DNA from: Escherichia phage P479
Sequence record: MW269952.1
DNA length: 64,000 nt
Direction: 5' to 3' (one strand)
In this document: positions 11,534-47,716 of the stretch, one piece after another
Position numbering within the stretch: position 1 is the stretch's first letter
How the letters are laid out: each line of letters opens with the position of its first letter
Translations under genes and position numbers: made by a program
The notes under the pieces: model-generated
Seen by the model: only the letters and a program-made list of their open reading frames with translations
The model's database searches: none
What the model was told of the DNA's origin: nothing

Positions 11534-11824
11534 ATGAAATCATCTTTTCGCTTTAATGGTCAGGAACTGGTAGTTGAGAATGTTATCCCGGCTTCAGAAG
11601 AGTTTGACAGCGCGGTGGGTAATGAACTGCGGCGCGTGTTTGGCGAAGATAAGAAGTTTGACCTTCGCCCTGTTGAAAACTTTGTAAATTCTGAACAAAC
11701 AGAAAATATTTTTAATGGTGTAGTAACTGGGCAACTTGAATCTGAAGCACCAATTGCAATTACAGTCTTTGCTAAGAAAGAAGTTGTAATGACTGCAGCA
11801 GGTTTCATTTCATTCCGCAAATAA
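11534..11824 (+). CDS. hypothetical protein (alt-downstream small ORF)
   Basis: ORF 11501-11824; internal ATG at 11534 with RBS gaggaaaacaaa. Confidence 0.45.
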   Translation: MKSSFRFNGQELVVENVIPASEEFDSAVGNELRRVFGEDKKFDLRPVENFVNSEQTENIFNGVVTGQLESEAPIAITVFAKKEVVMTAAGFISFRK

Positions 11825-11853
11825 AAAAGGGACCTTCGGGTCCCTTTCTTTTT
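11823..11853. terminator. bidirectional terminator hairpin (GGGACC-ttcg-GGTCCC) between the convergent 11534 ORF and gene 54
   Basis: Perfect 6-bp stem flanked by an A-run on the left and a T-run on the right. Confidence 0.7.
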
Positions 11854-12811
11854 ATAATATACGTTGACTTCCACCAGAGACTGTTCTCCCAGAACCAGTG
11901 AACGTATTGTACAGACTTGTTAATCCAGATTGAGCACCAGACAAGCGGCTCAATTTGGCAACTTCTGAGTTCAAGTTGTTATCTGAACTAATACCAGATA
12001 CACCCTTAATAACCTTATCTTCCAACCATTCCAATGCCGCAGCTCTTCCCACCGCACCAGTTGACATAACGCGATAAGCAAAAGTCACATCAAATGTAGC
12101 TATCTGATTATCCCCTTCATAGCTCAATTCAGGCGCAGATACACTTACAGGAACACAACCAGTTAACATAACAACCGTGTGCGGTAACCCATTACGTGAA
12201 TGAAGGTTAACCTGAATATCAGCTTCAACGTCTTCAGGCAAAGCCCTTAGCTGGGTAACTGGGTCCTGTACAGAGTTAACCCAATCGTTAAATGCTCTGA
12301 AGTTCCCTGCCTCTGAATCCATTCTAAAGCTCAATACCAACGGAGAATATTCTCTCCCGGTTATCTTGATATTTGGTGCATTATGGTTAAGGTCCATTTC
12401 GTAGTTCAATGTGTTATCCGGAAGCTTAACAGAGTGAACTAATAGACCAGCCGTTGGATATGCCATATTAAAGAAATCAAGTAGGTAAGTACCAACCTCA
12501 AATTCCCCCAATAATGATTGCACAACACGGTTACTCATTGCACCGATAAGATATTTGCTTATCCCTGATTTACGAATAAGCTTTTGTGTTCCGGCCGTAA
12601 CAAGAGTTGTTATCCCCTGAGTTAAGTCACCTTGTGTTAATCCGAACCAATCTGAGTTAACAGGAAGGTTACTGAATAATGCACCCCCGAACTGGTCCAG
12701 AAGATTCTGAGATTTGGAGGAAGGCGTGGTCGCGAAGACCACACTAAAAAGGTTATTCCTCTGCAAGTCGATATTAATCGCTTGTGTTTGAAATTCTTGT
12801 AAAGTAAACAT
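11852..12811 (-). CDS. 54: baseplate tail-tube initiator gp54
   Basis: 319 aa (T4 gp54 320 aa); synteny 54-48-29-28-27-51. Confidence 0.8.
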   Translation of the reverse strand: MFTLQEFQTQAINIDLQRNNLFSVVFATTPSSKSQNLLDQFGGALFSNLPVNSDWFGLTQGDLTQGITTLVTAGTQKLIRKSGISKYLIGAMSNRVVQSLLGEFEVGTYLLDFFNMAYPTAGLLVHSVKLPDNTLNYEMDLNHNAPNIKITGREYSPLVLSFRMDSEAGNFRAFNDWVNSVQDPVTQLRALPEDVEADIQVNLHSRNGLPHTVVMLTGCVPVSVSAPELSYEGDNQIATFDVTFAYRVMSTGAVGRAAALEWLEDKVIKGVSGISSDNNLNSEVAKLSRLSGAQSGLTSLYNTFTGSGRTVSGGSQRIL

Positions 12812-13905
12812 TAGAAACCTTCCGCATATAGTGAGCCACGGTTAAGCGTAATGATTTCACGGAAAGTGATTTCAAGTACAAAAGTCGATGGCAGGTTAGG
12901 AGCAATAGCTAATCCACCGAAATGACCATCCGGAGATTTATCGAATCTTATACTCTGAATCTGACACGGCCCAAATAGCTCCCCACGGCCATCGTATGAG
13001 CTTGTATCACCGAAGTTGCGGATATACCAGATGGTAGGGTTAGAGACCACCAGAACGTTCGTTAGGAAGCTTGTTATCTCTTCACCGAGCAACTTGCCGT
13101 CAAAGTTATCGATTGCTTCTTTTTTGAAGGTGGATTTATACCATGTGTCGATTTTATCTTTCAACTCGGAAGCAAACGAACTTTTACCGGTTTCCCCATA
13201 GGAATAATAGTTAAAAATCTCGTATATCTTCACTATCTGGATTAAGTCCTGGGCCGAACGTGGAGTCATTTCCCAGGTGTAAACTTTTGTCCTGTTATCC
13301 GGACCAGCATACATGCTTCGTGCGGTTGTGTAAATCTGTTCGCCATGGTCGGCCATTACACCGTTTGTAACTGATTCGAGTGCGCCGAAAACTGCAGTCG
13401 ATGCGATGTTACTAAGAATACCTGTAGCTGAGCCGCCCCCTTTCGTAATAAGAGATTCACCAACATCGTTGAATCGGTGTGATACGGATTCTACATCAGA
13501 CTTCGAACGAGGCAACAGGATATTTGCAACAGCGTTTGAATCAAAACTTTTACCTGTTGAGCCCGCCCCGGTTAATTTCGATTTAGCAAAAGATGTTAAA
13601 CTTTTAACCGGGTTAAATGAAGCACCATTGGAAACTTTCTTTAATGAAGTCAATTGGCTTGACCTATCTGAGCGTAATTCCGGAGATGTTCTTGAACTGA
13701 AATTGTATGCCGTGAATAACAGACCATTTTTATAAAGGTCATTAACTCGCATATCATCTGAAGAATCATTACCGGAAGCTCGTTCTGCTGGATATTGCGC
13801 CACAATAGTAGCTTGAGTCTGGGCAGCTTTTGACTGCCCAGCGGAGGTCTTAGAACCTCCGTTAAATAAACCCGCAATATCAATATCGAGTTCTTTTACT
13901 TTCAT
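12811..13905 (-). CDS. 48: baseplate tail-tube cap gp48
   Basis: 364 aa (T4 gp48 364 aa); synteny. Confidence 0.8.
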   Translation of the reverse strand: MKVKELDIDIAGLFNGGSKTSAGQSKAAQTQATIVAQYPAERASGNDSSDDMRVNDLYKNGLLFTAYNFSSRTSPELRSDRSSQLTSLKKVSNGASFNPVKSLTSFAKSKLTGAGSTGKSFDSNAVANILLPRSKSDVESVSHRFNDVGESLITKGGGSATGILSNIASTAVFGALESVTNGVMADHGEQIYTTARSMYAGPDNRTKVYTWEMTPRSAQDLIQIVKIYEIFNYYSYGETGKSSFASELKDKIDTWYKSTFKKEAIDNFDGKLLGEEITSFLTNVLVVSNPTIWYIRNFGDTSSYDGRGELFGPCQIQSIRFDKSPDGHFGGLAIAPNLPSTFVLEITFREIITLNRGSLYAEGF

Positions 13906-13913
13906 GTTATTCC

Positions 13914-15659
13914 TTAGTTAATTCTCGTGGCCTGTCTCATGCCAGGGGCAGGGGTTGAACTTTGAGGAGGCATATTGTATTGCGTCCTGGAAGTCTTCTG
14001 AATATTATTGACCGTGTTAATTTGTGCCTGAGCTGGTACATCCTTGTATTTATTTTCTTTGGCCTTCATGCCTTCGTCAACCTTCGCAGCTTGTTGTGCA
14101 TCCGGAGAAGTCTTAACATCCGGCGGTTTAACTTTCGGTTCGTCTTTGAACTTCTCGAGAGACTTATCAAGTTTTTCCAACAGGGCGCGCATATTCAGGT
14201 CTTTCGGAGCTCCACCTTTTGCCATAGCTGGGTCAGCTAATTGTTTTTCAATGTTAGCTCTCATTTCCATCGCATTCTTTTTATCGGTTGCGTCTGGCTT
14301 CATTAGGTTGTCAGCAGTTTGTGTCAAACGAATAATATCAGCCTGTGCTTTGTCACGCTTCTTGAAATAGTCCAGACGTTCTTCTTCCGGAAGGTCTCTG
14401 AAGCTTGTGTCAATCCCACCTGCGCGAAGCTGGTCAGCTTGTTCCTTGGTAAGGTTACCATATTTTTCGGCTTGATTAATTAGTTCAGGTTTATCCTTAT
14501 ACTTCTTATTCATCTTCTCTGCAGCTTCCATTGCTTCGGCCGAACGTTTGTCATGATATTTTGCTATCTTGGTTTGGTCTTCATCATCCAGAGTTGCCCC
14601 TGTATTTTGCTGATAAGACATCAAAGCTGAGGCTTCCACATTATCTGCTAAATCACCCATCCCAGGGATTTTGCTTAAGATAGCTGAAATCAGTTTCGAA
14701 ATACCAAGCATAAGAAGTTGAGCCATGTTCTTCGTTAAGTTGACCATCCCACGGATAATAGCTTCAGCTAATCCTAACCAGTTCCTTTCACTAAACATCG
14801 CTTCGGCGTTCTTAGCCCAGGTCATTAGTCCTTCAAGCAACGGTCCCCATTCTTTGAACTTATCATTAAATTCGGCCCATCCTTTTTCGAATTGCTTCAT
14901 GAAATATTGGAAGTAAACTCGTATCGCATCGATACCAAATACCAACAACAATAATCCACCAATAAGCTTGGCTGCTTCGGCTGCTGCCGTAATTGTATAT
15001 TTGAACAGCATTCCGGAGATTCGGTCAGCAACAGAAACCGATGCCTTAAATCCTTTTTCGGTTATCTTCGAAAGGGTATCAAGCTTATCACCAAGTGACC
15101 AGGTATTAGTCTCTTTACCTTCTGCATCGTTTTTTGGCTGTTCTGGTTCCGGAATGAAGTCAGCGTCGGGCTTTTGTTCTTCTGGCGGTATGAGCGCTGG
15201 AACGCTCGCTGTGGGCTTATTCTCTTCAGGCTCTGGTAGTGCATCCTCCACAGGTTTAAGGCTTTCAGAACCAGCCACAGGAGACGTGACGCCTATTTTA
15301 CCGCTTATCATTGCACTGAGTTTGTCGAGCTTATCCGAGAGAATATCCGTGAGGTTTTTAATCCCTTGTTGAGTCTTCTCGGTGGCTTCGGCCGTTAGTT
15401 CAACTCCGGCACTGATATCCTGGAGGACTCCATTGTTGGTCTGGATATTCTCAATAATCTGATTACCCTTATCCTCAATAGCTTCCGATACAAGTTCGGT
15501 TGCAGCCTGAGTATTTGTAAGGGTTGTGTTCAGATTCGATAATTCATCATTCTGTTCAGCAGAGAGGGCTTCCGCCCTCCTTTGTGGTGCTAATTCTTCG
15601 ATAAGCTTTTTATTAGGCCCACCGCGTCTGAAGCTTGTTTGTTCGGAGTTCTTATTCAT
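13914..15659 (-). CDS. 29: tail tape-measure protein gp29
   Basis: 581 aa (T4 gp29 about 590 aa); synteny. Confidence 0.8.
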   Translation of the reverse strand: MNKNSEQTSFRRGGPNKKLIEELAPQRRAEALSAEQNDELSNLNTTLTNTQAATELVSEAIEDKGNQIIENIQTNNGVLQDISAGVELTAEATEKTQQGIKNLTDILSDKLDKLSAMISGKIGVTSPVAGSESLKPVEDALPEPEENKPTASVPALIPPEEQKPDADFIPEPEQPKNDAEGKETNTWSLGDKLDTLSKITEKGFKASVSVADRISGMLFKYTITAAAEAAKLIGGLLLLVFGIDAIRVYFQYFMKQFEKGWAEFNDKFKEWGPLLEGLMTWAKNAEAMFSERNWLGLAEAIIRGMVNLTKNMAQLLMLGISKLISAILSKIPGMGDLADNVEASALMSYQQNTGATLDDEDQTKIAKYHDKRSAEAMEAAEKMNKKYKDKPELINQAEKYGNLTKEQADQLRAGGIDTSFRDLPEEERLDYFKKRDKAQADIIRLTQTADNLMKPDATDKKNAMEMRANIEKQLADPAMAKGGAPKDLNMRALLEKLDKSLEKFKDEPKVKPPDVKTSPDAQQAAKVDEGMKAKENKYKDVPAQAQINTVNNIQKTSRTQYNMPPQSSTPAPGMRQATRIN

Positions 15660-16170
15660 TTAGGAGTTCCATTATTTTCAGTAACCCCTTAACAGGACCA
15701 TTCGGACCCGGGATTGCTAATGTGCTTGTGATATCGTCTGCCCACTTAGCAACAAAAGCAGGCATATCCAGAAAGTCTGGAACATCTTCCCCGAGATAAA
15801 GGGTCTCCAGGAGATTGTCAACTGGTCCGAATTCTTCATACGGTTTATTGGAGCGGAATTTAAATGTCTTTCCTTGATAAGAAAATTCAAGGCGCTGACA
15901 GATATAAACAGCATCCAGCTTATATGTAAATCCATTAATCTCGCGTTTGTCTTTTAGCTTACCATTAAATTCCAGAAGATGTAAAGATACAAAGTCGGAT
16001 TCGGCTGCTGTAAGATTAGGGAATATCGATTGCATAATCTTTCTTAATGCAACATAAGGATTAGGTTCGTTTTTAATCAGATTGTGATGCTTGAGTCCAA
16101 GCTTGGGAACGTGAATCTCTTTATCACCCAGCTGTATTTTCTTCGTCGGCAGAATCAGTTTTAAGTTCAT
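15652..16170 (-). CDS. 28: baseplate hub distal subunit gp28
   Basis: ORF 15652-16212; start placed at internal ATG 16170 ([10 protein letters not shown]...) by recalled similarity to the T4 gp28 N-terminus; overlaps the 3' end of gene 27. Confidence 0.6.
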
Positions 16171-17293
16171 TTTTAACCTTCGGTGGTTCTTCAACTTCGA
16201 TAGGCTTACCATTGGTAAACATATAGAGGTTTGTAATTGATGTATTGTTACTCACTTCATGAATAACTTCGTCTACGTAAAAATCATATTTGAATTGGTT
16301 CTTAGGGTCAAAGAAATTTATCTTATCGCCCGGGGTTAATTCAAAGTTCCCGTATGTTTTGCAATGCGCGTAACCGTCATATTGTGACATGGTTATCAAT
16401 CGTTGTGCTTCCTCGAAACCATTTCGGTATGTATAATCTGCATAGCCACCGGAACGAGATACCAGAATACTGTTTTGTCCTTCCCCAAAAGTTATTCTGG
16501 TTGCGTTCTTATCAAGGAATGAATGCGCATACACGGTTGCGTTTTCGTATGGTTTTCTTGTGTGTTGGTTTGCCTTTGTTAACCATTCAAAATCGAAGGC
16601 TAAAGGAGTAGTCAGGTTTTGTACAAATTGACCAACCAATCGAGGTTCACCCACCACAAAATTAATTGGCTCTTGTGATGTTAACCATTCATAATCCTGG
16701 ATACTTATTCCATCAATATCTTCCCATACAAAAACAAATTTATCAGTTTCTACCGACAGGCCAACTTCCCTTATGAATTCCATATATTGGTTCATCGAAT
16801 CACACCATGGAACGTTAGGAGCATAAACGTTTATGCCGTTTATTGGTGGGGAAAGTAATGGTCTATCTTGATAAATTACCCCGGTCATTTCGACTAATGT
16901 TTCCTGTACGCTCGGGTAAAACATACGACTAAATTTCAAGTCTTCAATTTCGTGAATAGGAGCCAGCTGAATTGTAATTATGTTATCACCCTTTGAATCC
17001 ACGGAAACAGCAAAGTGTTTACTTCCATATATTCTGGATTGTGTTCGGTCGGAGTTAGCATTCTTAACGGAAATCTGAATAACCTGTTCACCATTCATTT
17101 TTGTATGCAGGTTTTTCGTATCATAGAATTGCAAGAGCCCCTCGTTTCTTCCATAAAGGGAATCACGCATGGTTAACGTTGTAAAGGTGGCAGCTAGTTC
17201 CACAAAACGGTGTTCAAGCCATGCATCATAATCTTCGTAAAGGCGGATGCTGATATTAGGAAAGCCTTCACGCTGCATAGATTTAACTGTCAT
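16124..17293 (-). CDS. 27: baseplate hub subunit gp27
   Basis: 389 aa (T4 gp27 391 aa); synteny. Confidence 0.8.
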
Positions 17294-18042
17294 TTTTTCA
17301 AGTCCTTCTCAACTAGTGATAAAGCAATACCTCGTTCAATAGGAATCATATGCATGATGCTATCTAGCGAATATTGATTCTTTACCAGCAAGTGGTTAAT
17401 TTGATAAAATACAAAGACTTCATCCGGGTTAAGGATAAGCTTAAAGACGTCAAGCAGGTCAGTATATTCGGTTTTGTGTTTTTCGCAGCAACCATATGTA
17501 AATGGGATATAAACTGAATGCATTTTCTTAAGGAGTGCTTCAAGGCTCTCTATATCAATTGCATCGATAACCTGCATCTTTGTTTCTTCGGGGAGGTCTT
17601 CCCAATTGTATTTTTGTTCCGAGTCTTCGACAGTCTGGATGGTGTTTAGAACAAGCTCCGACTTATCTTTATATTCCACTTCAGGGAACTTAAATTGTAT
17701 TTTTATCCCGGCGGTTTCCATTGTTGGATTTATCAATGGACCCTGATTCATGTTAAACAAAGTCTGCTTTGTCTTTTTACATTTTTGACATTCGAACGCT
17801 ACCGGGACTTTTGTCTTACCGATAGAGGAAGTGAATACCTTCAGGAATATGTAAGGCCTCCATGCTTTTGGATACTCTCCAAAATAATCTTCCAACAGTT
17901 CGTCTAATAATTGTTTTTGTTCTTCGACGGGTTTGTTGTTCATGTCGTTTCGCACAAGCAGTAAATCACGGTAATCAGCGACTGTAAACGGTTTGAAACG
18001 ATGAACTCCGTCTGGCATTTCACATCTTACGATATTGGCCAT
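17290..18042 (-). CDS. 51: baseplate hub assembly catalyst gp51
   Basis: 250 aa (T4 gp51 249 aa); synteny. Confidence 0.75.
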
Positions 18043-18066
18043 AGAATCCCCTTTTATCTTTATTGA

Positions 18067-18078
18067 TATTTATAAATA
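18067..18078. promoter_or_regulatory. overlapping divergent late promoters (TATAAATA on both strands) for genes 51 and 26
   Basis: tatttataaata: - strand TATAAATA at 18067-18074 (25 nt before the gene 51 ATG), + strand TATAAATA at 18071-18078 (17 nt before the gene 26 ATG). Confidence 0.6.
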
Positions 18079-18095
18079 CAGTAAAGGAGCAAATT

Positions 18096-18719: not shown

Positions 18720-19109
18720 ATGAATATAAACAAAATGTATAGCGATGTGTCTCCCGACTTATCTACAAGTTGGGATAAAGACGTTGCTAAAGTAACTGGT
18801 GCAAGGTCTGTTAAGAACAGTCTTTTGGGAATAATCACCACAAGAAAAGGGTCAAGGCCTTTTATGCCTGAATTTGGATGTGATATAAGTAATCAGCTTT
18901 TTGAGAATATCACTCCATTAATCACAGATACCATTAAACGCAACATCGTCTCCGCGGTGCGGAACTTTGAACCAAGGATAAGCAATCTGCAGGTTGCAGT
19001 TGTCCCTATGTATGATGATAACTCCATTATCGTAACGGTTCAGTTCAGCATTGTTGATGACCCTGATACCCTCGAACAAATCAGGATTCAGCTAAGTCAA
19101 AACGGTTAA
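18720..19109 (+). CDS. 25: baseplate wedge protein gp25 (gpW/lysozyme-like fold family)
   Basis: 129 aa (T4 gp25 132 aa); synteny between 26 and uvsY. Confidence 0.8.
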   Translation: MNINKMYSDVSPDLSTSWDKDVAKVTGARSVKNSLLGIITTRKGSRPFMPEFGCDISNQLFENITPLITDTIKRNIVSAVRNFEPRISNLQVAVVPMYDDNSIIVTVQFSIVDDPDTLEQIRIQLSQNG

Positions 19110-19146
19110 TGCTTTAATTTTATGGCTGTATAATGGTTCTAGACCC
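19107..19146 (+). promoter_or_regulatory. MotA-box middle promoter upstream of uvsY (equivalent of T4 P_uvsY)
   Basis: aTGCTTTA box 19109-19116, TATAAT 19129-19134, conserved GGTTCTAGACCC 19135-19146; the same position as the classical T4 uvsY middle promoter. Confidence 0.6.
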
Positions 19147-19162
19147 TTACATTGGATACATT

Positions 19163-23432: not shown

Positions 23433-24566
23433 ATGGCTTATACCGTAACTATTGCTCCTTTGGCGGCTACGGCCGTTATTGGGGCAACAACAAATTTCAC
23501 TGCAACCGGTTCCGGTGCTGCAGCTGAAGGTACCGAATCATTTGTCTGGACCGTTGATGGCGTTCCTCAATCTTCTGTGACTGCTGCAATGGATTATGTC
23601 GCTGTTGGTCCAGCAGGCAGTAAGACTATTAAAGTTGTTGCAACCACCACTCCGGCAGACGGGGAACCGGAAACTGCTGAAGCTGAAACAACTTTAACTA
23701 TCCAGAATAAAACAATGCCGGCAATCACGCTGACTTTAGACCCGGCCTCTGTTACTAAAGAAATAGGGCAATCTCAAGTTGTTACTGCTAACGTGACAGG
23801 CGCTCCTTCTGGTGCAACAATCGCTTATGTTTGGAAACGAAATGCCGACGTAATCCCAGGACAAACTGGTAAAACAATCACCGTCACCGAATCGGCTGAA
23901 GCAAATTATACATTGAACTGTGAAGTTACTGTTTCAGCAGCAGATTATGATAATGGCACAGCAACTGAAGGTGCTGCTGTTATCTTTGTTAAGAAAACTA
24001 TGTCAGGTGTTTCTGTAACATTAACCCCAGAATCAATTAATGTTCCGGAAGACACCCCAGCCTCTTTTAAAGCGGATGTAGTCGGCGCACCGAGTGGAGC
24101 TACTTTTGCCTATTCTTGGAAGAAAGACGGTTCTCCTGTGGTTGGCAACACGGATACTCTAGCAATCGATACAAGCGCTGAAGGTTCACAGGTTATTGAA
24201 GTTTCTGTTGTGGTTTCGGCGACTGATTATAACCCGGCGACTGTCACAAAAACTGGTAATGTAACAGTCACGGCTAAAGTCGCACCAGTTCCAGATGGTG
24301 AACTACCTTACGTTCATCCGCTGCCAGTTCGTAATTCAGCTTATATCTGGTGTGGTTGGTGGGTTATGGACGAAATTCAGAAAATGACTCTTGCTGGACA
24401 AGACTGGAAAACTGATGCTCCAGATAGCCCGTATTATTTGCACCGATATACACTTCAAAAAATGATTACCGACTATCCAGAGGTTGATGTACAAGAATCT
24501 CGTAACGGTCGAATTATTCATCGCACCGCTTTAGAAGCTGGTATTATATACGATTACGTTTATTAA
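23433..24566 (+). CDS. hoc: Hoc, highly immunogenic outer capsid protein (Ig-like domains)
   Basis: 377 aa; repeated Ig-like segments; C-terminal ...GELPYVHPLPVRNSAYIWCGWWVMDEIQKMT...YYLHRYTLQKM...PEVDVQESRNG... matches recalled T4 Hoc. Confidence 0.85.
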   Translation: MAYTVTIAPLAATAVIGATTNFTATGSGAAAEGTESFVWTVDGVPQSSVTAAMDYVAVGPAGSKTIKVVATTTPADGEPETAEAETTLTIQNKTMPAITLTLDPASVTKEIGQSQVVTANVTGAPSGATIAYVWKRNADVIPGQTGKTITVTESAEANYTLNCEVTVSAADYDNGTATEGAAVIFVKKTMSGVSVTLTPESINVPEDTPASFKADVVGAPSGATFAYSWKKDGSPVVGNTDTLAIDTSAEGSQVIEVSVVVSATDYNPATVTKTGNVTVTAKVAPVPDGELPYVHPLPVRNSAYIWCGWWVMDEIQKMTLAGQDWKTDAPDSPYYLHRYTLQKMITDYPEVDVQESRNGRIIHRTALEAGIIYDYVY

Positions 24567-24568
24567 TT

Positions 24569-24598
24569 AAAAAGGGACCTTCGGGTCCCTTTGTTTTT
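24569..24598 (+). terminator. rho-independent terminator (GGGACC-ttcg-GGTCCC) after hoc
   Basis: Hairpin plus T-run. Confidence 0.7.
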
Positions 24599-24682
24599 AT
24601 GGTACTGTACAAACGTTGCCTGGCATAAAAACCCTGTTTACAAGTTAAAAATTCTATGATAGGATAGCTTCACTAACTCAAC

Positions 24683-24886: not shown

Positions 24887-25146
24887 CATTCGCAGAAGAA
24901 CTACGTCAAATCGCAAAAGAATCCCAAGATAAAGTTGCAAATGACTTTATTGCTATATTCCGCAAAGTGGCAGTTGCCGCCGCTGAAAATGGCAAAGATG
25001 CTGTTAATATGGCAGTTTCTGAAAAAGAGTATGAAGAAGGAAACCGCGCAAAGATATCTGAATTTCTGCGAGCAGAAAAATTTACATCATTTACCTGGAA
25101 TTATGATTGGCAAGAAGCCAAGCCAATGCTGTATGTAAAATTCTGA
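24883..25146 (+). CDS. hypothetical small protein (24.2 position)
   Basis: ORF track, 87 aa; ATGA overlap. Confidence 0.4.
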   Translation: MTFAEELRQIAKESQDKVANDFIAIFRKVAVAAAENGKDAVNMAVSEKEYEEGNRAKISEFLRAEKFTSFTWNYDWQEAKPMLYVKF

Positions 25147-25150
25147 CCCT

Positions 25151-25190
25151 TTTTGCTTCAAATAAAAATGCGGTATAATGGTTCTAGACC
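25151..25190 (+). promoter_or_regulatory. MotA-box middle promoter upstream of rnlB
   Basis: TTTGCTTCA box 25151-25159, TATAAT 25173-25178, conserved GGTTCTAGACCCC 25179-25191. Confidence 0.55.
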
Positions 25191-26283: not shown

Positions 26284-26312
26284 ATAAAGGGACCCGAAGG
26301 TCCCTTTTTTAA
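26284..26312. terminator. bidirectional terminator hairpin (GGGACC-cgaa-GGTCCC) between convergent rnlB and gene 24
   Basis: Hairpin with a T-run on + and an A-run on the other side. Confidence 0.7.
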
Positions 26313-27622: not shown

Positions 27623-27628
27623 AAAGTT

Positions 27629-27658
27629 GTTTACAACCAGATTAAGATAAGACATAAT
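27629..27658 (+). promoter_or_regulatory. T4-type early promoter (GTTTAC, 18 nt, CATAAT), second copy of the 4627 cassette
   Basis: gtttac 27629-27634, cataat 27653-27658, followed by gattccatactgagtta as at 4657-4673. Confidence 0.55.
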
Positions 27659-27699
27659 GATTCCATACTGAGTTAACAAACAAAACCTGGAGTTTAAAA

Positions 27700-27981
27700 A
27701 TGAACAAAGCAACTTTCCTTCTGAACACCTTTAAAAATCTGGAAATTGAAGTTATTGCCTTGGTCAACAAATACCCAAATGGTGTTAATGGTAATGCTCT
27801 GAACAAACTAGTTAAAAAATATGAAAACTTAGCATATGACACTGATTTCTGGTGGAATGGTAATTATTCTACTCACACTAAAGATAAAAATTGTAACTGG
27901 TTGAAACTTCAAGAAAACAATGTTAACTTCAGAGACCTCATCAAGCGCCGGGTAGAAGTTCATTTAAATGGTATGGTATGA
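27700..27981 (+). CDS. hypothetical protein, 93 aa, inserted between late genes 24 and 23 on the opposite strand
   Basis: ORF track; own early-type promoter upstream and terminator downstream. Confidence 0.5.
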   Translation: MNKATFLLNTFKNLEIEVIALVNKYPNGVNGNALNKLVKKYENLAYDTDFWWNGNYSTHTKDKNCNWLKLQENNVNFRDLIKRRVEVHLNGMV

Positions 27982-27985: not shown

Positions 27986-28017
27986 AAGAAAGGGACCTCA
28001 AGGGTCCCTTTTTATTT
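27986..28017. terminator. bidirectional terminator hairpin (GGGACC-tcaag-GGTCCC) between the 27700 ORF and gene 23
   Basis: Hairpin followed by tttttattt. Confidence 0.7.
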
Positions 28018-33358: not shown

Positions 33359-33406
33359 TAGAGTCTCCGAAGTTTGGGAAATGAGGCCGAAGCCTCATAA
33401 TAACTT

Positions 33407-34024: not shown

Positions 34025-34075
34025 CCCGTAGAACCGATTATGCTTTTATTTATAACACTGTATAATGGTTCTACG
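34025..34075 (+). promoter_or_regulatory. middle-promoter-like cassette (TGCTTTTA box, TATAAT, GGTTCTA) enclosed by a perfect 10-bp inverted repeat, oriented antisense to gene 18
   Basis: Inverted repeat ccgtagaacc (34025-34034) / ggttctacgg (34066-34075); box 34040-34047; TATAAT 34060-34065. The - strand also carries TATAAATA at 34046-34053. Confidence 0.45.
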
Positions 34076-34107
34076 GTTTCTAACTGATTAATTCTAAGCG
34101 ATGATAA

Positions 34108-36087
34108 TTATTGTGGCCCAATCAGCTCATCGAAATTAGCACCGGTGCTTGTTGCTACGAAATTAAGCGTGATGTAGTTGATGCTGCGCGCCGGTTTGAA
34201 ATAAATGCTAGCAACAAACTCATTTCGGTCTATGACCGACGGGGTGTTGTTAGTAGTATCACAAACCACACGACCTTCATAAATGCCACCGAGCGCACGA
34301 ATACCATCCAAGTATTGAGAAGTTTCCATACGGAATGATGCACGAGTGAAGTTATCGTTAAGCTCAAACAGTTTATATTTGGATGCGTCACCGATATTTT
34401 TCTTCAGCATATTCGTAAGACGGCGAACGTTGATATGGTCCATCGGAGATGGAACTTTAGTTGCAGTCTTATCACCATACAGAACAAAACCATCACCACC
34501 TGCGAAACCAACAACCGGGTTGATAGCTTCCTGATACATGCGGTCACGTTGGGTCTGACGTGGTTCAACAGCCAATTTCAGAACGTTCAGAATCTGACCA
34601 CGATTATAACCTGCCGGAGACATCCAAGGCTGAGAAACATCATCAGTACGAGCACACAGTCCAGCCATATCAGCTGCCAGAGGAACCCAACGGTTAACGT
34701 CGTTATATTTATCATACTGATATTTATAGTTGCCATCAATCGCTGCATAAGTTGTGCTGATATTCATATTATCAGTATCAAATGCACCAGCACCTGTACG
34801 CCAGTCAATCAGGTTATCCACTGCACGGGTCAGAGGAACGTTAACCAACAGACCTTTCGGCGGGGAAATGAATGCCAAGCAATCCTGACGTTCGTCAGCA
34901 ATAGAAACTACGTGCTTCTGAACAGTGGAAGCGGTCGCATCACCTTCACCAGCACAAGCACCAGCGATAAGCAGGTTGATATGCAGAGCTTCACGGTCAG
35001 CGAACAGGTCCCAACCTTGCATCAAATCACCAGCGGTAATCTTATCGTTTGCAGAAATACCGCCAGACAGATTGATGATACCACTGAAGCCTACAGGCCA
35101 GTTGCGAGATGTTGCATAGATGTAGTTGGAAGTACCTTTTGCAAAGTAGTCATCCAGGTAAATGTTATTACCATAAACATCTTTTTCGCCCTGCTTAGTA
35201 GACAAAACAACGTTTTCGACGATTGCACCATCGCGGCGAACGATAATAGCATATTGGTTTTCGGTCTGAGGACCATAGTTAAACACCGCACGAGCTATAG
35301 AAGCGCGGGAACCACCACCAGGGAAAATATCCAGATTTGCAGTTGCGCCTTTTTCAAATTCAGCTTTGGATACGATTTCAACTTCAAGAGTCGAACCAAT
35401 TTCACCAGGATAAAGAGCAACAACACCCGGCATTGCATATTTTGCCAATGATGCCTGGAATTCCAGAGAAGTAATTGCTTCTTCACTGTTTTCTGCTTCA
35501 GTCAACAGAATGCCAGAATCGGTAACAATTTTTCCGACAGTGATGGTACCAGATACACCGGAAGAAGTGGTCGTAACTTCTGCAGTCCATGCACTGCCCA
35601 AATTAGGATACTGATTAATAGTTTTAGCAAATGCAATAATCTTATTGGTAGGAATAAAGATTGCCAGAATTTTACCATCAACATCGACCTTGGTCACACG
35701 GCCAGCTGGTTCAACAACAGTCTGGTTGTGTTTAACCTGAATAACATCACCGACAGCATAGTTTGTACCAGCAGTTACGATGGTAGTTTCAATATTGCCA
35801 GCAATAGGGGATGCGTTTTTAGCTTCGTCACGGTTAACAACACGTACAGTACGGAGGTCATTACCATATTGCAGGAAGTTCATCCCACTCATAAAGTAAT
35901 CTGCTGTTTCATTATTCGGACCACCAAACAAATCAACAAGTTCAACTTCGTTTGTAATCTGAGTTACCTGGAAAGCTGGGCCCCACTGGAATTTACCAAC
36001 CAGCGCCGCACGACCCGTCGCGTTACGAACAACAGTGCTTTGGACCGTTGTTTCTTTGAGCTCAATGCCCGGGGATAATAAAGCCAT
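34108..36087 (-). CDS. 18: tail sheath protein gp18
   Basis: 659 aa (T4 gp18 659 aa); synteny. Confidence 0.9.
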   Translation of the reverse strand: MALLSPGIELKETTVQSTVVRNATGRAALVGKFQWGPAFQVTQITNEVELVDLFGGPNNETADYFMSGMNFLQYGNDLRTVRVVNRDEAKNASPIAGNIETTIVTAGTNYAVGDVIQVKHNQTVVEPAGRVTKVDVDGKILAIFIPTNKIIAFAKTINQYPNLGSAWTAEVTTTSSGVSGTITVGKIVTDSGILLTEAENSEEAITSLEFQASLAKYAMPGVVALYPGEIGSTLEVEIVSKAEFEKGATANLDIFPGGGSRASIARAVFNYGPQTENQYAIIVRRDGAIVENVVLSTKQGEKDVYGNNIYLDDYFAKGTSNYIYATSRNWPVGFSGIINLSGGISANDKITAGDLMQGWDLFADREALHINLLIAGACAGEGDATASTVQKHVVSIADERQDCLAFISPPKGLLVNVPLTRAVDNLIDWRTGAGAFDTDNMNISTTYAAIDGNYKYQYDKYNDVNRWVPLAADMAGLCARTDDVSQPWMSPAGYNRGQILNVLKLAVEPRQTQRDRMYQEAINPVVGFAGGDGFVLYGDKTATKVPSPMDHINVRRLTNMLKKNIGDASKYKLFELNDNFTRASFRMETSQYLDGIRALGGIYEGRVVCDTTNNTPSVIDRNEFVASIYFKPARSINYITLNFVATSTGANFDELIGPQ

Positions 36088-39299: not shown

Positions 39300-39342
39300 A
39301 GTAACCTCCAGGCGCCCAATTCGGGCGCATTAATAAATGTAT

Positions 39343-40128
39343 TTATTCATCAAAGAAACTATCGTCAAAGCTATCCTGTTTTGTCTTAGGAGGAGCCTCA
39401 AGCCCACGGCCATTCTGCACAAAATATGGTTTAACATATTCAGCTGCTTCTGCGTTAATCTCATCAGATTCTGCATAAGGGATATCGCTGATATCTGTAA
39501 GGCCATCGATATTGTGGATTGGTTGTAAATCGAGCTCGCTGAATTCTGAAATATTAATACCTTCATTCCGTTGCAATTCAGGTTTAAGTTCTTCCCCGGA
39601 GTAAATGTATTTGCTCGCGGTGATTTTACGAATGGCGTTTTGACCTACCTGATAGAATGGGTCGTAAGGTTGTACCCAGGTTATCTCGAACAGACTGTTA
39701 TCAAGAGGGAAATAAATCAAATCCCCGGCAATAGGTTCAGTCCCATTGCATTGGTGTTTAAACAGATTAGGGTTAATCGATACTGTGATTTCATCGTTCA
39801 CAGACATACCCCATTTACTAAAGATAGAACCATCACCCTGATATGCGTCAAACGTATCCAGATAACCTGCAAATTTCCATGCTTTATCAAATTTACTCTG
39901 GAGGTCTTCACCGAATAACAAATCCGGTTTAACAAATTGTCTTGGGATATAATAGAGAGACATTCCGCGCATCTGAATACTTTCAGCAACAATAGCATCA
40001 GCTAAAGTCTGGGTATTTTCATGATGCATAAAGTTGACATAAGGGTTCAATATCTCTGTAGCATTGGTATTGTCATACCCGGTCCCGTCTTCGAGCCGGG
40101 CGAATAATCTTGAGTCATAAGTAGCCAT
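39343..40128 (-). CDS. 14: neck protein gp14
   Basis: 261 aa (T4 gp14 256 aa); synteny. Confidence 0.8.
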
Positions 40129-41066: not shown

Positions 41067-41084
41067 ATGTTTTCCTCTTTACTG

Positions 41085-41092
41085 TATTTATA
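41085..41092 (-). promoter_or_regulatory. T4-type late promoter for gene 13
   Basis: TATAAATA on -, 19 nt upstream of the gene 13 ATG. Confidence 0.5.
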
Positions 41093-41094
41093 CG

Positions 41095-41116
41095 AAAAAA
41101 GGGCCGAAGCCCTTTT
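41095..41116 (-). terminator. rho-independent terminator after wac
   Basis: gggc-ttcg-gccc hairpin flanked by A/T runs (aaaaaagggccgaagccctttt). Confidence 0.6.
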
Positions 41117-41117
41117 A

Positions 41118-42749: not shown

Positions 42750-42757
42750 TTTGGTCC

Positions 42758-44308
42758 TTAGTAATGAATTTTGATAATATAGTTTAAAGACATATTCCAT
42801 GGGCGAGTTTCATAACCAATAAGACCTTCACGGTTTAATGTACCTAAAGCATCTCTGCCGCCACCGAGTTCAAATCCATCGTTAGTAAAATATGAAGCGT
42901 TATCCCAGTCTGCATATTTTCTTGTGCCCAGATAACCCTGATAAACTGATGCACCAAATGGAGCTTCGTTACGTTGGTATTCACCCCAACCACCCGCGTG
43001 TTTATGATATGACATTTGCTGAGCTTGTACACCACCGACCCATGAACCATCACAACCAACACCCAAACGGTCTTTACCATAACCATCTTGGCCGCGGTTA
43101 TTCAGAATATGTCCACCGGTACCAGCACCACGAACAAACAAACCACGCATATCAGGAATACCGACGTTGGTCCAATCGCCACCGAAACGAGTTCCAACAG
43201 TATTTCGATAGTCAGGGAATTGGTCACCATTAACGGTGCCACCATGGCACATAATCCAACCAGGAGGAGCACTATCACCTGCAAACATCATCACGGTTCC
43301 GACAGGAACACGTTCAGAAGCATAACGCTGTGTAGAAAGTAATTCGCCACCCATGTGAGCTGTATTGGAATCAAAATTACCGGTGGAAATATAATCTAAA
43401 GAAAGACTTCCATTAATTCGTTGACCGCCGCGAGTGTTAATTACATCAGCGTTCCAAGCCAGCGCGCCTGCACCATCGCCGCCGGGAGCAACCCCTGCCT
43501 GAGTAGTTAATCTAACAACACCGCGAATATCGGTTGTAGCACCACGACCATTAAGAGTTGCTCCGGTTACCGCAACACCATCAGCACTGTTATTAATCTC
43601 TGACTGAGTACCAAGACGAATAATCCCCGCGCGGTCTTGTGTTGCTGTACGAGCATTTAAACCAGCCGGAGAAATTGCTACACCATCACCCAAAGTTCCT
43701 GCTTGTACTTCAGCATTTGTGGCAATTCGTACTAAACCGGAAACAGTTTGTGTGGCAGTTGAATAAGTCGGAAGAGCTGCTGTTGCCTTACCAATTGCCA
43801 GAGCAACTTTCAACGGAGACATAGCTGTTGTGTCGTCTGTACCAGCTAAAGCCGCATCCTCGGTACTAATACGAAGAACGCCCAAATTATTTTCGGTACC
43901 GACACGAACAGTAAAAACATCATCAATTGTTGCTTTTAATGAAGATGGAACAATAGCCGCATCGGTTACTGTCCCGGCAATTGCTTCAGCATCGGTTGCA
44001 TAACGGGTAATACCTACATAAGTTTCTGTGGCTTGCGTAGGGATGTCTAAACGAGCTTTTAAGGTTGCTGGAGTAACTGCAGAGTCTGGACTAATACCAT
44101 CAATAACTTCTTGTGTGGTGGCTAGTCTGATGAGTCCTGCAGTCGTTTCGGAAGAGGCTGGGATATATCCATCTAACGCAATTTTATTAAGAGACCCTAA
44201 AGCCTCTTGTACGTTGGTAACAGTCGACGGGAAGGCTGTCCCCGTCGGGTCGAACGTTTTATATTCGGATTTATCGCTAATGTGTTTTAGCGTGTTAGTC
44301 GTTGTCAT
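42758..44308 (-). CDS. 12: short tail fibre protein gp12
   Basis: 516 aa; C-terminal ...HKHAGGWGEY...TRPWNMSLNYIIKIHY matches recalled T4 gp12. Confidence 0.85.
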   Translation of the reverse strand: MTTTNTLKHISDKSEYKTFDPTGTAFPSTVTNVQEALGSLNKIALDGYIPASSETTAGLIRLATTQEVIDGISPDSAVTPATLKARLDIPTQATETYVGITRYATDAEAIAGTVTDAAIVPSSLKATIDDVFTVRVGTENNLGVLRISTEDAALAGTDDTTAMSPLKVALAIGKATAALPTYSTATQTVSGLVRIATNAEVQAGTLGDGVAISPAGLNARTATQDRAGIIRLGTQSEINNSADGVAVTGATLNGRGATTDIRGVVRLTTQAGVAPGGDGAGALAWNADVINTRGGQRINGSLSLDYISTGNFDSNTAHMGGELLSTQRYASERVPVGTVMMFAGDSAPPGWIMCHGGTVNGDQFPDYRNTVGTRFGGDWTNVGIPDMRGLFVRGAGTGGHILNNRGQDGYGKDRLGVGCDGSWVGGVQAQQMSYHKHAGGWGEYQRNEAPFGASVYQGYLGTRKYADWDNASYFTNDGFELGGGRDALGTLNREGLIGYETRPWNMSLNYIIKIHY

Positions 44309-44973
44309 TACGATACTCGCTTATAATGGTAAAGTGAAATTGCGCCATTTGCTGTGCCACCTGATAATGTCTGGGTTGAAGTTCCAAGATATTCCCATGA
44401 ACCATAACCACCGCGCGGTTGCTGTGTAATAGTCTGGCTAAGCGTACAACCATATTGAGTGAAAGGTACAAAATTATGGTTTTGGTAGTCGTTATATGTA
44501 ATATTTAATATAGACTGGTCCACACTATCAATTGCAGAGCTTGACACAATTAAACTATCAGCAACAGCCGTCAGCAAAGCATCGTTAACCTTGGAAGCAA
44601 CTAATACAGCCGAATCCCCGACAATAACCTCGACCGGAATACCAAAAATGAAAAATAAAACAGTATCACCGACCCCTGCGCCAGAAATAGACCCGGTGAA
44701 TTTAATTTTATCCGACTGACTAATTGCCGCAGGAGAAAGGTTATTCGTATTAGTAATTACACTGCCAACCGGAAGCTCATATCGAAACGCAATATCATCT
44801 ATTGCGCTCTGAACTGTTGGATAAAAAATACCCTCGGTTGTTTGTGTTGCGGATGGGCCGCCGATTGCTCGTTGACCCATGACAGCCGTAATATTTTTTG
44901 ATGTATTTTGAAATTCTAAGTAACTAGCAAGGCGGGAAATTACTCCAGCCTTTTTATTCGTTAATGTTTTCAT
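44308..44973 (-). CDS. 11: baseplate wedge / short-fibre attachment protein gp11
   Basis: 221 aa (T4 gp11 219 aa); synteny. Confidence 0.8.
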   Translation of the reverse strand: MKTLTNKKAGVISRLASYLEFQNTSKNITAVMGQRAIGGPSATQTTEGIFYPTVQSAIDDIAFRYELPVGSVITNTNNLSPAAISQSDKIKFTGSISGAGVGDTVLFFIFGIPVEVIVGDSAVLVASKVNDALLTAVADSLIVSSSAIDSVDQSILNITYNDYQNHNFVPFTQYGCTLSQTITQQPRGGYGSWEYLGTSTQTLSGGTANGAISLYHYKRVS

Positions 44974-46784
44974 TAAGCAATCCTTACCCAGCGATGAGCA
45001 ATCAAATATGGAGGCATTGTATAAACCGGTTGAGCTTGAGGGTCTTGCGCCTGATTAATAGTGGCTTTGTCTTCTCTGTATTTGGTATAGGCTGGACCTT
45101 GTGCATCTGGGTCTACCTGACAACCGCCAACAACAATCGGACCATTATCATCAACAACCAAAACTTTCTCATCGGTTTCAAGTTTAGGTACGTTTATATC
45201 TTTAATATGAACTTCAACACTACCACCTGTGCCACCCGCTGTCGCTTGTGGGTTACCACCAGAATCCAGGTCATTATTGTTTGTATGGAAGTTTGAGGCA
45301 GGGTCATCAGACCAGGCAACGATTACACGTTCTTTCAAACGTTTCCATGAACCGAATCCCATATAAGTAACCGGGTTATTCGGGTTAACCGTATTTTCGT
45401 AAATTGTACCAACCGGATAGAATAATTCAAAGATAGCGCCAACAGAAGATGGAACAACTTCCTGAAGACCGACAGGTTCAACGTTTGGTGCAAACGGATT
45501 ATCAAAATCTGTAATACGTACACGACCAGTTAGGCTCAATGTATTTCCCTGAGAAACATAAAGAGTGTCAGTCTCATCACGGATTTCATCCATGGTCATA
45601 GTTGTGCCGATATCGTTATTGTACCAAATGACCGACAGAATATCACCGTCTTCAAATTCACGATAAATGCTAATACCTTCGATGCGGTTGTCATCATCAA
45701 ATTGCAGCAAATAATCCTGGGTCGATTCAGACCAGCTACCACCATTTGCACTACATTCTGCAGCAGTAGAACCTTGTGCACCTTCGCAATAAAATACTGG
45801 AGTTCCTGCAGTCCCGGCTTGGTGTTGTAAAATACTGTTAATGAATACCTGACATGCGTTTGGGTTAATTGGACTACCCGGAGAAATACCAAGTTCTTCA
45901 ATTGTAAAGGTGTGTTTGGATGTCAAATCTGTAACAATCAAAGAACCATTAATTGTTGTTTCTTTGGTCCTGTCCTGACTACGAACAAGTACATCACGAC
46001 GATTATACGAACTACGCCATTGCGCAATACCATCATTAAATGTTCGGATGATAACCGTATCACCTTCGGCACATGGCATTTTCAAACGGATACTTTTGCC
46101 GTCAAGCGCAACAATTTCGCCAGGGTTTGCACCAGGGGAACCAAATTCAGCATTCACCGGGTCGAAAATATCATCTTTACCATAAAACAGGTCGTTACCA
46201 CGATGTTTGACTTCTAAGTTCGATACGCTATACGGAATAGCACCAAACACATTGATAAAGTCAGTTTGTCCTTCGGTAGCAATAAACTGTTGGGATGCAA
46301 CTGTAGCAACGTCATTATTTGAAATTTTATCGACTTGTTTATTATCGATATATTCCCAACGACCTGGTGAACAATATACAAGTTCAAGGTCAGCTAAGTT
46401 GCGTTTAATTTCTACTGGATTTGGTGAGCCTTTAATAGTATCCCCGACTGCAGGAACAATTGTCACCGGGTTGATTTGCCAAGTAGCAAACACGTCACGC
46501 AAGCGAATTACATAATTGTATTCTTGAGTTGTTCCTTTCGGGAGGACGACTCGAACTGCACCGGCTGATGTATCGATGGTATAGCTTCGACCCATAACAG
46601 CAGACAACTCGGTGCCTTCTTGTGTAGTCCAAGTTTTCCACGCACCAGCCGCATGAGGATTTTCACCGTCACCCAGCTGATAATAAAGGTCGTCAAAGTT
46701 ATTGTTTATTTTTTGACCGCCGAGACGAAGGTAATCACCAGTACCATCATCAACCATATTGCCAATTTTTAAATTCTGTTTCAT
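44973..46784 (-). CDS. 10: baseplate wedge protein gp10
   Basis: 603 aa (T4 gp10 602 aa); synteny. Confidence 0.85.
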   Translation of the reverse strand: MKQNLKIGNMVDDGTGDYLRLGGQKINNNFDDLYYQLGDGENPHAAGAWKTWTTQEGTELSAVMGRSYTIDTSAGAVRVVLPKGTTQEYNYVIRLRDVFATWQINPVTIVPAVGDTIKGSPNPVEIKRNLADLELVYCSPGRWEYIDNKQVDKISNNDVATVASQQFIATEGQTDFINVFGAIPYSVSNLEVKHRGNDLFYGKDDIFDPVNAEFGSPGANPGEIVALDGKSIRLKMPCAEGDTVIIRTFNDGIAQWRSSYNRRDVLVRSQDRTKETTINGSLIVTDLTSKHTFTIEELGISPGSPINPNACQVFINSILQHQAGTAGTPVFYCEGAQGSTAAECSANGGSWSESTQDYLLQFDDDNRIEGISIYREFEDGDILSVIWYNNDIGTTMTMDEIRDETDTLYVSQGNTLSLTGRVRITDFDNPFAPNVEPVGLQEVVPSSVGAIFELFYPVGTIYENTVNPNNPVTYMGFGSWKRLKERVIVAWSDDPASNFHTNNNDLDSGGNPQATAGGTGGSVEVHIKDINVPKLETDEKVLVVDDNGPIVVGGCQVDPDAQGPAYTKYREDKATINQAQDPQAQPVYTMPPYLIAHRWVRIA

Positions 46785-47653
46785 TATACCGGTACTCCGA
46801 TTGTTTGGGCGGAAATTACTTTAATAGCGAGCTTCATGGCAGTGGGTGAGCTTATAGCCGCCTGAATGATATCCTGGTTATCAATTCTAAAATCGATGGC
46901 ATATATCTCATCTTCTTCATTAGTTTGTCCACGTCTGATTACAGCGTATTCTGTGCTATATACCTTGCGGTCCTTAAGGTCGATGTAAAGTAATATTTCT
47001 GATGCTTTGTATTTAGTTTCGTCTGTTGAAATAGCTGTCAGCATCAATTTGATAGTTTTATAATCTGCGCGGAAAGCAAGTGGAATATCACGAACAACCG
47101 AGCTCATATTGTATGTTTTGTCGAGCAATACAGATTGGTTGCCAAACATACTTTCAATTTTGTAGTCCCAGGTCCCTACACCGTTAGCATCGTCAATACA
47201 CCACAATGTAATTTTTGTATAAGGCTGAGTAAATTTCATTTTGTTCGTTGCAGCAGTCAGGAATGAATCCGTGCCTTGTAGTTCAACTTCCAAAGGCAAC
47301 GAGGTGGATAATGAACCATTGGAGTTAATAAAGATAACACCTTCGCCTGCTTTACCTTTTGCAATTCTTGCGGTGATAACACCTTCGGCAGTATTGACAT
47401 CTCGCATAGAACCGAGAGCAACAGTTGAGTTCCATTCGATGATATTTGTGGCTTTTTGATAGTAGCCAGTCGCATGAAGTACCTGGGAGTTTTCTCCATT
47501 GTTCACAGAGTACAGACGCTGGTCGCCGAATGTATTATACAAACTGTCTAAATCCACGTTCAGTTTACGACCGCCTTCATATAGAATATCACCGGTGCTG
47601 GCGTTACCAATCTCGCCGATGTCTACTAATAATTTTGGGGTTTGATTAATCAT
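46784..47653 (-). CDS. 9: baseplate wedge / long-tail-fibre socket protein gp9
   Basis: 289 aa (T4 gp9 288 aa); synteny. Confidence 0.85.
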   Translation of the reverse strand: MINQTPKLLVDIGEIGNASTGDILYEGGRKLNVDLDSLYNTFGDQRLYSVNNGENSQVLHATGYYQKATNIIEWNSTVALGSMRDVNTAEGVITARIAKGKAGEGVIFINSNGSLSTSLPLEVELQGTDSFLTAATNKMKFTQPYTKITLWCIDDANGVGTWDYKIESMFGNQSVLLDKTYNMSSVVRDIPLAFRADYKTIKLMLTAISTDETKYKASEILLYIDLKDRKVYSTEYAVIRRGQTNEEDEIYAIDFRIDNQDIIQAAISSPTAMKLAIKVISAQTIGVPV

Positions 47654-47680
47654 AGGTAAGCCTCGTTATTGATATAGCTA

Positions 47681-47688
47681 TATTTATA
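47681..47688 (-). promoter_or_regulatory. T4-type late promoter for gene 9
   Basis: TATAAATA on -, 28 nt upstream of the gene 9 ATG. Confidence 0.55.
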
Positions 47689-47692
47689 GAAT

Positions 47693-47716
47693 AAAAAAGG
47701 GACCCGAAGGTCCCTT
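47693..47716 (-). terminator. rho-independent terminator (GGGACC-cgaa-GGTCCC) after gene 8
   Basis: Hairpin directly after the gene 8 stop, followed on - by a T-run. Confidence 0.65.

Follow-up and report, generated by a model that had tools for sequence, protein, structure and literature searches.

C(UUCG)G hairpins reportedly occur in the intercistronic regions of bacteriophage T4, where Tuerk et al. are said to have described them in 1988 (in PNAS 85:1364). PMC3972237 cites UUCG hairpins both in T4 mRNA (Tuerk et al. 1988) and as the loops of terminators (d'Aubenton Carafa et al. 1990), and PMC1524935 describes terminators whose positions in T4-like genomes, behind genes 23 and 32 and ahead of alt, are conserved. 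Another repeated stem-loop of these phages is the PeSL (promoter-early stem-loop) element, which Arbiol et al. (2010, PMC2839356) and Comeau et al. (2014, PMC4122927) describe as a composite of approximately 50-100 nt that joins an AT-rich region, a stem-loop terminator, an early (sigma-70) promoter, a Shine-Dalgarno sequence, and an ATG. In this study, we analyzed a 64,000-nt stretch of Escherichia phage P479 (MW269952.1; hereafter the window), in which five near-identical hairpins with the stem GGGACC...GGTCCC are found between genes. These hairpins are most probably Rho-independent (intrinsic) terminators of the C(UUCG)G-capped class of T4-like phages, a reading to which we assign a probability of approximately 90%; i.e., they are ordinary members of a terminator class known since 1988.

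Location of the five hairpins

The window comes from a phage of the genus Gaprivervirus and shares approximately 98% identity with three T4-like coliphages of that genus (DK-13, vB_EcoM_RZ, and SP18). Its genes, given their T4 names, are ordered cd-31-rIII-30-alt | 54-48-29-28-27-51 | 26-25-uvsY | uvsW | inh-hoc-rnlB | 24-23-22-21-...-8-7-6-5-53 | 4-.... The pattern GGGACC-N3-6-GGTCCC occurs exactly five times, at 11829-11844, 24574-24589, 26289-26304, 27992-28008, and 47699-47714, as the preliminary description of this DNA had it; dinucleotide-preserving shuffles contain 0.01 such hairpins on average, and no shuffle reached five. A separate repeat search returned the same five hairpins as the first (D1) among the direct-repeat families of the window. 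All five also have the A/T-rich flanks noted earlier, A-rich on the 5' side and T-rich on the 3' side, and the stem grows to AAAGGGACC...GGTCCCTTT (9 bp) in four copies and to AAGGGACC...GGTCCCTT (8 bp) in the copy at 47699. The extended hairpins are listed in Table 1.

Three of the hairpins (11829, 26289, and 27992) lie between convergent genes, again as described earlier. The first occupies the 27-nt gap between a 107-aa open reading frame (ORF) downstream of alt (11501-11824, +) and gp54 (11852-12811, -), and the second occupies the 27-nt gap between the stop codons of rnlB (26281, +) and gp24 (26309, -); both gaps are wholly taken up by the hairpin. The third lies between a 93-aa ORF (27700-27981, +) and the stop codon of gp23 (28032, -), and it was classed as bidirectional, as was the hairpin between rnlB and gp24. 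The remaining two sites are co-directional: gp8 and gp9 are both on the - strand, and hoc is likewise followed by genes in its own direction, i.e., small ORFs and rnlB, ahead of which a sigma-70-like promoter match (9/12 positions) begins 45 nt past the hairpin. Downstream of gp8, a T4-type late promoter would restart transcription for gp9 (start 47653). The small ORFs that flank the hairpins all belong to PHROG families of unknown function and thus give no functional clue.

Table 1. Hairpins, associated promoters, and breakpoints in the window, with the T4 hairpins used for comparison.
Feature	Position	Strand	Sequence and context
Terminator, alt-downstream ORF / gp54	11826-11847	+	AAAGGGACC-UUCG-GGUCCCUUU, UUCG on + strand; in-context fold -15.2 kcal/mol, z = -3.2
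Terminator after hoc	24571-24592	+	AAAGGGACC-UUCG-GGUCCCUUU, right behind stop of hoc (23433-24566, +); z = -2.9
Sigma-70-like promoter match	24637-24665		past hoc hairpin
Terminator, rnlB / gp24	26286-26307	-	as at 11826 and 24571, UUCG on - (gp24 sense) strand; z = -4.3
Terminator of gp23 (major capsid protein)	27989-28011	-	AAAGGGACC-CUUGA-GGUCCCUUU, 5-nt loop variant; z = -2.6
Terminator, gp8 / gp9	47697-47716	-	AAGGGACC-UUCG-GGUCCCUU, then UUUUUUAUUC; directly past gp8 stop (47718); z = -3.6
Late promoter, T4 type	47681-47688	-	TATAAATA, 8 nt past gp8 terminator
UUCG class, related stem	4587-4606	+	AGGGACUC-UUCG-GAGUCCCU and U-tract; behind 53-aa ORF (4421-4582)
Early-promoter-like site	4628-4656		downstream of 4587 hairpin
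UUCG class	9353-9372	+	AAAAGGGC-UUCG-GCCCUUUU; past DNA ligase gp30
Late promoter	9377-9384		TATAAATA, past 9353 hairpin, ahead of alt
UUCG class	41097-41116	-	AAAAGGGC-UUCG-GCCCUUUU; past wac, identical to 9353 hairpin
Late promoter	41092-41085		TATAAATA, past 41097 hairpin, ahead of gp13
UUCG loop class, no U-tract	33381-33398	-	AUGAGGC-UUCG-GCCUCAU; between gp19 and gp20
Late promoter	33414-33407	-	33381 hairpin just downstream
UUCG class	51826-51843	-	AAGCCUC-UUCG-GAGGCUU, then UUUUU; short gap gp6/gp7
Breakpoints vs vB_EcoM_RZ	20442/21206, 23717/23991, 34093/34108, 40118/40121		
Breakpoints vs vB_EcoM_RZ, continued	56373/57002, 58103/58736, 59564/60223, 62972/63633		
T4 gp8|gp9 hairpin			GGGAGCC-CAUG
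T4 gp23 hairpin			GGGAACC-UUCG
T4 gp24|rnlB hairpin			GGGACC-UUUC/GAAA
T4 hoc hairpin			GGGGC-UUCG
T4 gp54|alt.-3 hairpin			GGACC-GAAA
T4 gene 32 terminator	146908-146924 (T4)		GGGACC-CUAGA-GGUCCC

Terminator anatomy and proposed function

In the stem of each hairpin, 6 GC-rich pairs are extended by 2-3 A-U pairs, the loop has 4-5 nt, and the extended hairpin starts 0-10 nt past a stop codon at all five sites. On the sense strand, at least 6 T residues are found within the 10 nt past the GC core (5/5 sites). All five are located at the end of a coding region, a location that is shared by T4 and by T4-like contigs. The predicted folding energies of the extended hairpins are -13 to -14 kcal/mol, with in-context z-scores of -2.6 to -4.3. 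The earlier interpretation as terminators is well supported by this combination of a GC stem, a U-tract, and an adjacent stop codon, as well as by the hairpins and T-runs with compensatory changes at the orthologous sites described below.

Runs of T are present on both strands at four sites, and therefore these copies can act in both directions, which we consider plausible from their layout. In the copy at 47699, only the - strand carries a T-run, and this copy would thus work in one direction; the two-way termination proposed earlier for the shared palindromic stem is therefore plausible for four copies and not for the fifth.

In the proposed mechanism, the host RNA polymerase would first transcribe the stem, whose 6-bp GC core is lengthened to 8-9 bp by A-U pairs, and subsequently the U-tract. 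The unusually stable UUCG tetraloop would nucleate fast and stable folding of this very short stem, and the hairpin together with the weak rU:dA hybrid would release the transcript. The released mRNA would keep the hairpin at its 3' end and may thereby be shielded from 3'-to-5' exonucleases. At the four sites with an A-run upstream and a T-run downstream, the same 22-23 bp would stop polymerases arriving from either side, and convergent genes could therefore be separated by as little as 27-50 nt. Where the genes run in the same direction (hoc to the small ORFs and gp8 to gp9), termination would be followed by initiation at a fresh promoter downstream, i.e., the early-promoter-like site after hoc and the late promoter TATAAATA after gp8.

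Loop orientation and the wider C(UUCG)G class

The preliminary description treated TTCG and CGAA as two types of loop. CGAA is the reverse complement of TTCG, and this apparent diversity was a misreading: four of the five copies are one oriented 16-mer, GGGACCUUCGGGUCCC, which is read from the + strand in two copies (11829 and 24574) and from the - strand in the other two (26289 and 47699). That a perfect stem is identical on both strands is trivial, and the informative feature is the orientation of the loop. In each of these four copies, the UUCG is closed by a C-G pair (CC-UUCG-GG) and is on the sense strand of the gene that ends there, namely the alt-side ORF, hoc, gp24, and gp8. The bare hairpin is 0.9 kcal/mol more stable in the UUCG orientation than in the CGAA orientation.

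The same loop extends well beyond the GGGACC stem. A strict scan of the window for a hairpin followed by a T-run gave approximately 10 strong sites, 9 of which, including 51826-51843, have the C(UUCG)G loop. UUCG hairpins with stems of 5 bp or more were counted 12 times in the window, compared with 0.66 in shuffles. The terminators at 4589, 9357, and 41101 (4587, 9353, and 41097 in their extended form) had been set apart from the five because of their different stems; the stems do differ, but the C(UUCG)G loop is the same, and the five hairpins are therefore part of a larger class instead of forming a family of their own. In the window, all nine intergenic UUCG hairpins that are GC-rich have this loop on the sense strand of the gene upstream. 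Of the GC-rich tetraloop hairpins in two complete genomes, UUCG caps 22 of 40 in vB_EcoM_RZ and 16 of 44 in T4; every one of them (22/22 and 16/16) is in the local sense orientation, although convergent sites are uninformative in this count, as either orientation is the sense orientation for one of the two genes.

This strict placement points to a function at the level of RNA. It bears directly on the alternative that the hairpins are signals in the DNA itself instead of terminators, namely cruciforms with a role in replication, packaging, or the targeting of nucleases, or places where a sequence-specific protein binds. The stems are perfect palindromes of identical sequence, as a sequence-specific binder would require; a cruciform is symmetric, however, and would not account for a loop that is kept on the sense strand in both complete genomes. 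In addition, it is the structure and not the sequence that is kept at orthologous sites, a T-run follows the 16-mer even in unrelated genomes, and no Rfam family matched anywhere in the window at gathering thresholds. We regard this alternative as exceedingly improbable.

The exact 16-mer GGGACCUUCGGGUCCC was found in more than 120 unrelated viral contigs, the GC content of which ranges from 31% to 66%. More than 120 bacterial genomes, which represent many phyla, contain it as well. A T-run lies behind the UUCG orientation in 93 of 120 viral contigs, compared with 32 of 120 that have the mirror-image upstream A-run. Judged from this distribution, GGGACCUUCGGGUCCC is a generic sequence at which evolution has arrived many times.

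Orthologous sites in T4 and T4-like phages

Terminator-like hairpins are present at all five orthologous sites of T4, with other stems and loops (Table 1). Downstream of gp23, nearly all of the 50 T4-like loci have a perfect hairpin with a T-run. The stems are of at least 12 kinds, and the loops at this site across T4-like contigs are mainly UUCG, with some GNRA loops (e.g., GCAA and GAAA). Among 19 distinct gp23 hairpin sequences, 98% of the cells pair, and 6 of the 8 pairs vary on both sides, far above both controls; these values were counted on an ungapped subset of 19 sequences, as the MAFFT alignments had shifted the register of the hairpin. Hairpins with T-runs and differing stems were also observed downstream of gp54 (18 loci) and gp8 (35/40 loci). 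In most of 40 T4-like contigs, the terminator past gp8 is followed by the late promoter TATAAATA despite the different stems.

Several points weigh against the terminator reading. The fifth copy (27992) has CUUGA on the gp23 strand and lacks the C-G-closed UUCG loop of the other four. The covariation count at gp23 is partly circular, since the sequences were picked by the hairpin finder. Several T-tracts are interrupted (UUUCUUUUU and UUUGUUUUU), so that termination may be only partially efficient, and termination may differ late in infection, when the RNA polymerase is T4-modified. No usable 3'-end mapping (Term-seq) study of a T4-like phage was found in the literature searched. The anatomy, the strand-specific loops, the conserved positions with their compensatory changes, and the generic recurrence of the element were observed in the sequences, and termination itself, its efficiency, and the stabilizing role of the hairpin are inferred.

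Three observations concern the loops at individual sites. The loop of the T4 gene 32 terminator (CUAGA) and that of the gp23 hairpin in the window (CUUGA, 27992-28008) are one base apart, at unrelated loci and in different genera. At gp24|rnlB, GTAA and TTAC loops are found on the same strand between identical stems in relatives that are approximately 98% identical in gp23 (L123, 10541-10562, vs L124, 10542-10563; also L126, L127, and L155), and this loop flip suggests a stem-mediated micro-inversion. At the same site (26286-26307 in the window, 108610-108631 in T4, and 10562-10579 in L125), the stable tetraloop is on the rnlB-sense strand in T4 (GAAA), in some JS98-like phages (GUAA), and in VR20-like phages (GCAA), and it is on the gp24-sense strand (UUCG) in the window and in vB_EcoM_RZ.

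Possible recombination between copies

The preliminary description also held that the shared stem provides short dispersed homology. A reading of this kind would make the hairpins recombination linkers that shuffle gene modules in the manner of PeSL cassettes. According to PMC2839356 and PMC4122927, the PeSLs of RB49/phi1 have been shown to recombine, with the formation of mini-circles, and those of T4/PST and KVP40/nt-1 coincide with indels. Furthermore, early-promoter-like sequences lie behind two hairpins (4587 and 24571), and the ORFs adjoining 24574 and 27992 are variable in more distant relatives. Breaks in homology are expected at intergenic spacers in any case, however, and those with the more distant relatives are uninformative because they were found in every intergenic spacer.

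The complete genome of the close relative vB_EcoM_RZ (96-98% identical) has six copies of the GGGACC pattern, i.e., five orthologues of the window copies and one past gene 32. None of the eight indel or replacement breakpoints between this genome and the window (Table 1) falls at a GGGACC hairpin. The sequence common to the copies spans only 22-36 nt, all of which are parts of the terminator, and similarity ends approximately 12 nt outside the hairpin, beyond which the identity of the flanks is 0.22-0.43 against a background of 0.26 (95th percentile, 0.38). Four of the five hairpins are located in the conserved core of structural genes, outside the hyperplastic regions. If direct copies recombined, 12.7 or 21 kb of essential genes, structural genes among them, would be lost, and recombination between inverted copies would produce an inversion. 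The layout of the PeSL as one unit was not found either: three sites are convergent and have no room for a promoter, 47697 leads to a late promoter, and only 24571 has an early-promoter match. The five hairpins likewise show no extended conservation beyond the stem-loop. A role as dispersed recombination homology is not supported, and we consider it very unlikely that the hairpins act as linkers of this type.

Two further candidates were rejected. A larger repeat or mobile element around the hairpins was ruled out, as the flanks are at background identity, and a mobile dispersed repeat (REP- or MITE-like) does not fit a unit of at most 36 nt that consists of just the A-run, the hairpin, and the T-run.

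The PeSL-like repeats of the window are elements other than the five hairpins. A 64-nt repeat (4621-4684 and 27623-27686, both +) is 78% identical between its copies, contains the exact 24-mer ACATAATGATTCCATACTGAGTTA, and looks like a PeSL-type cassette of an early promoter and a 5' untranslated region (5'-UTR). Its second copy would drive the 93-aa ORF (phrog_6003, unknown function), which is inserted antisense between gp24 and gp23, at the place where T4 has the homing endonuclease segD. A 63-nt pair (63250-63312 and 63584-63646; 87% identical) with a promoter-like TATAAT lies in a region of small ORFs and internal proteins. Three MotA-box-like TGCTT...TATAATGGTTCTA copies (19100-19141, 25146-25186, and 34032-34073) have the look of middle promoters. 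As to the breakpoints themselves, hoc encodes 377 aa in the window and 282 aa in vB_EcoM_RZ (NC_070780), with an internal indel at 23717-23991. On the vB_EcoM_RZ side, an extra gp19.1 ORF between gp19 and gp18 (34093-34108) and a homing endonuclease between gp14 and gp13 (40118-40121) are present that are absent from the window.

Uniform stems within the lineage

The use of the GGGACC core at more sites in this lineage than in its relatives is mildly unusual and may reflect homogenization, in which short-patch gene conversion or copying during recombination-driven replication would have spread a GGGACC-UUCG allele; this would be an addition to terminator function and not a replacement for it. 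At gp8|gp9, gp23, hoc, and alt|gp54, the GGGACC core is found only in the Gaprivervirus clade. At these sites, phages of the JS98-like sister clade carry GGGCC-GCAA, GGGAGAC-UUCG, GGGCC-GCAA, and GGAGAGC-GUAA and thus repeat an allele of their own at two of them, and T4 has five different stems at its five orthologous sites. The copies at 11820-11855 and 24565-24600 are identical at 34 of 36 positions. In other T4-like loci, GGGACC accounts for 9 of 119 terminator cores; from this frequency, P is 0.03 for 5 or more among 23 terminators and 0.0005 for 5 among 10, although these statistics are post hoc, since the site was chosen as conspicuous.

On the other hand, every alternative stem is one or two compensated steps away from GGGACC, and the background identity of the flanks past approximately 12 nt speaks against copying. 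The independent origin of GGGACCUUCGGGUCCC in hundreds of unrelated genomes makes convergence demonstrably easy. Core matches within one T4-like genome (3.6%) are no more frequent than those between genomes (3.9%); general homogenization within genomes across T4-like phages was thus not seen, and the excess is confined to this lineage. We therefore regard homogenization as a tentative and rather unlikely addition. A fuller scheme of concerted evolution, somewhat more doubtful still, would have AAAGGGACC-UUCG-GGUCCCUUU copied by short-patch gene conversion onto at least four Gaprivervirus sites and GGGCC-GCAA in the sister clade, with loops that flip by stem-mediated micro-inversion (GUAA vs UUAC) and selection that keeps the stable tetraloop in the sense orientation.

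Other UUCG hairpins in the window

The elements at 9353 and 41097 are composites of a terminator and a late promoter and are identical at 35 of 40 nt. They contain a second identical terminator pair, AAAAGGGCUUCGGCCCUUUUUU (9353-9390, +, and 41116-41079, -), which is followed in each case by [A/C]GTATAAATACA. The hairpin at 33381 is probably the 5'-terminal stabilizing hairpin of the gp20 mRNA, judging by its position behind a late promoter; relatives have GGAGC-UUCG at this position between gp19 and gp20. The hairpin at 51826 overlaps the stop codon of gp6 (51842-51844) by two bases, unlike the situation in T4, in which gp6 and gp7 overlap and no hairpin was found there.

Comparison with known systems

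Little new biology is at stake in the five hairpins, since T4 itself is the phage in which terminator hairpins with C(UUCG)G loops were described first. Nevertheless, the ten window hairpins in Table 1, three of which are followed by late promoters, provide a clean map of transcription units for this stretch of a Gaprivervirus genome, and the 22-bp AAAGGGACCUUCGGGUCCCUUU is a compact candidate bidirectional terminator for engineering. The strict loop orientation, the signs of loop flips, and the lineage-uniform stems have a small conceptual value as a possible system for the turnover of short hairpins.

The hairpins resemble the PeSL and PmSL elements, which PMC2839356 and PMC4122927 present as repeated A3-4 G3 ... 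C3 T3-4 stem-loops in T4-like genomes, and promoters lie behind some of them and of their relatives in the window (early-like at 4628 and 24637; late at 9377, 41092, and 47688). In the same sources, PeSLs cluster in hyperplastic regions and are linked to indels, whereas the five hairpins share the terminator only, are located mainly in the structural core, and are at none of the indel breakpoints.

The likeness to the C(UUCG)G hairpins of T4 is closer: both have a short GC stem and a C-G-closed UUCG loop, are intercistronic, and carry UUCG on the sense strand of the mRNA. T4 itself uses the GGGACC stem at gp24|rnlB and after gene 32. Unlike in T4, one stem is used here at more sites (five in the window and six in vB_EcoM_RZ, counting GGGGACC after gene 32), and the gp23 copy has a 5-nt CUUGA loop. 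Finally, the five hairpins share with the intrinsic terminators of E. coli and its phages, among which are bidirectional ones that separate convergent genes, a GC-rich hairpin followed by a U-tract, the preference for tetraloops, and the upstream A-tract for action on both strands. There is no essential difference between the two; the stems are at the short end of the range, with a 6-bp GC core that is offset by the UUCG cap and the A-U extension.

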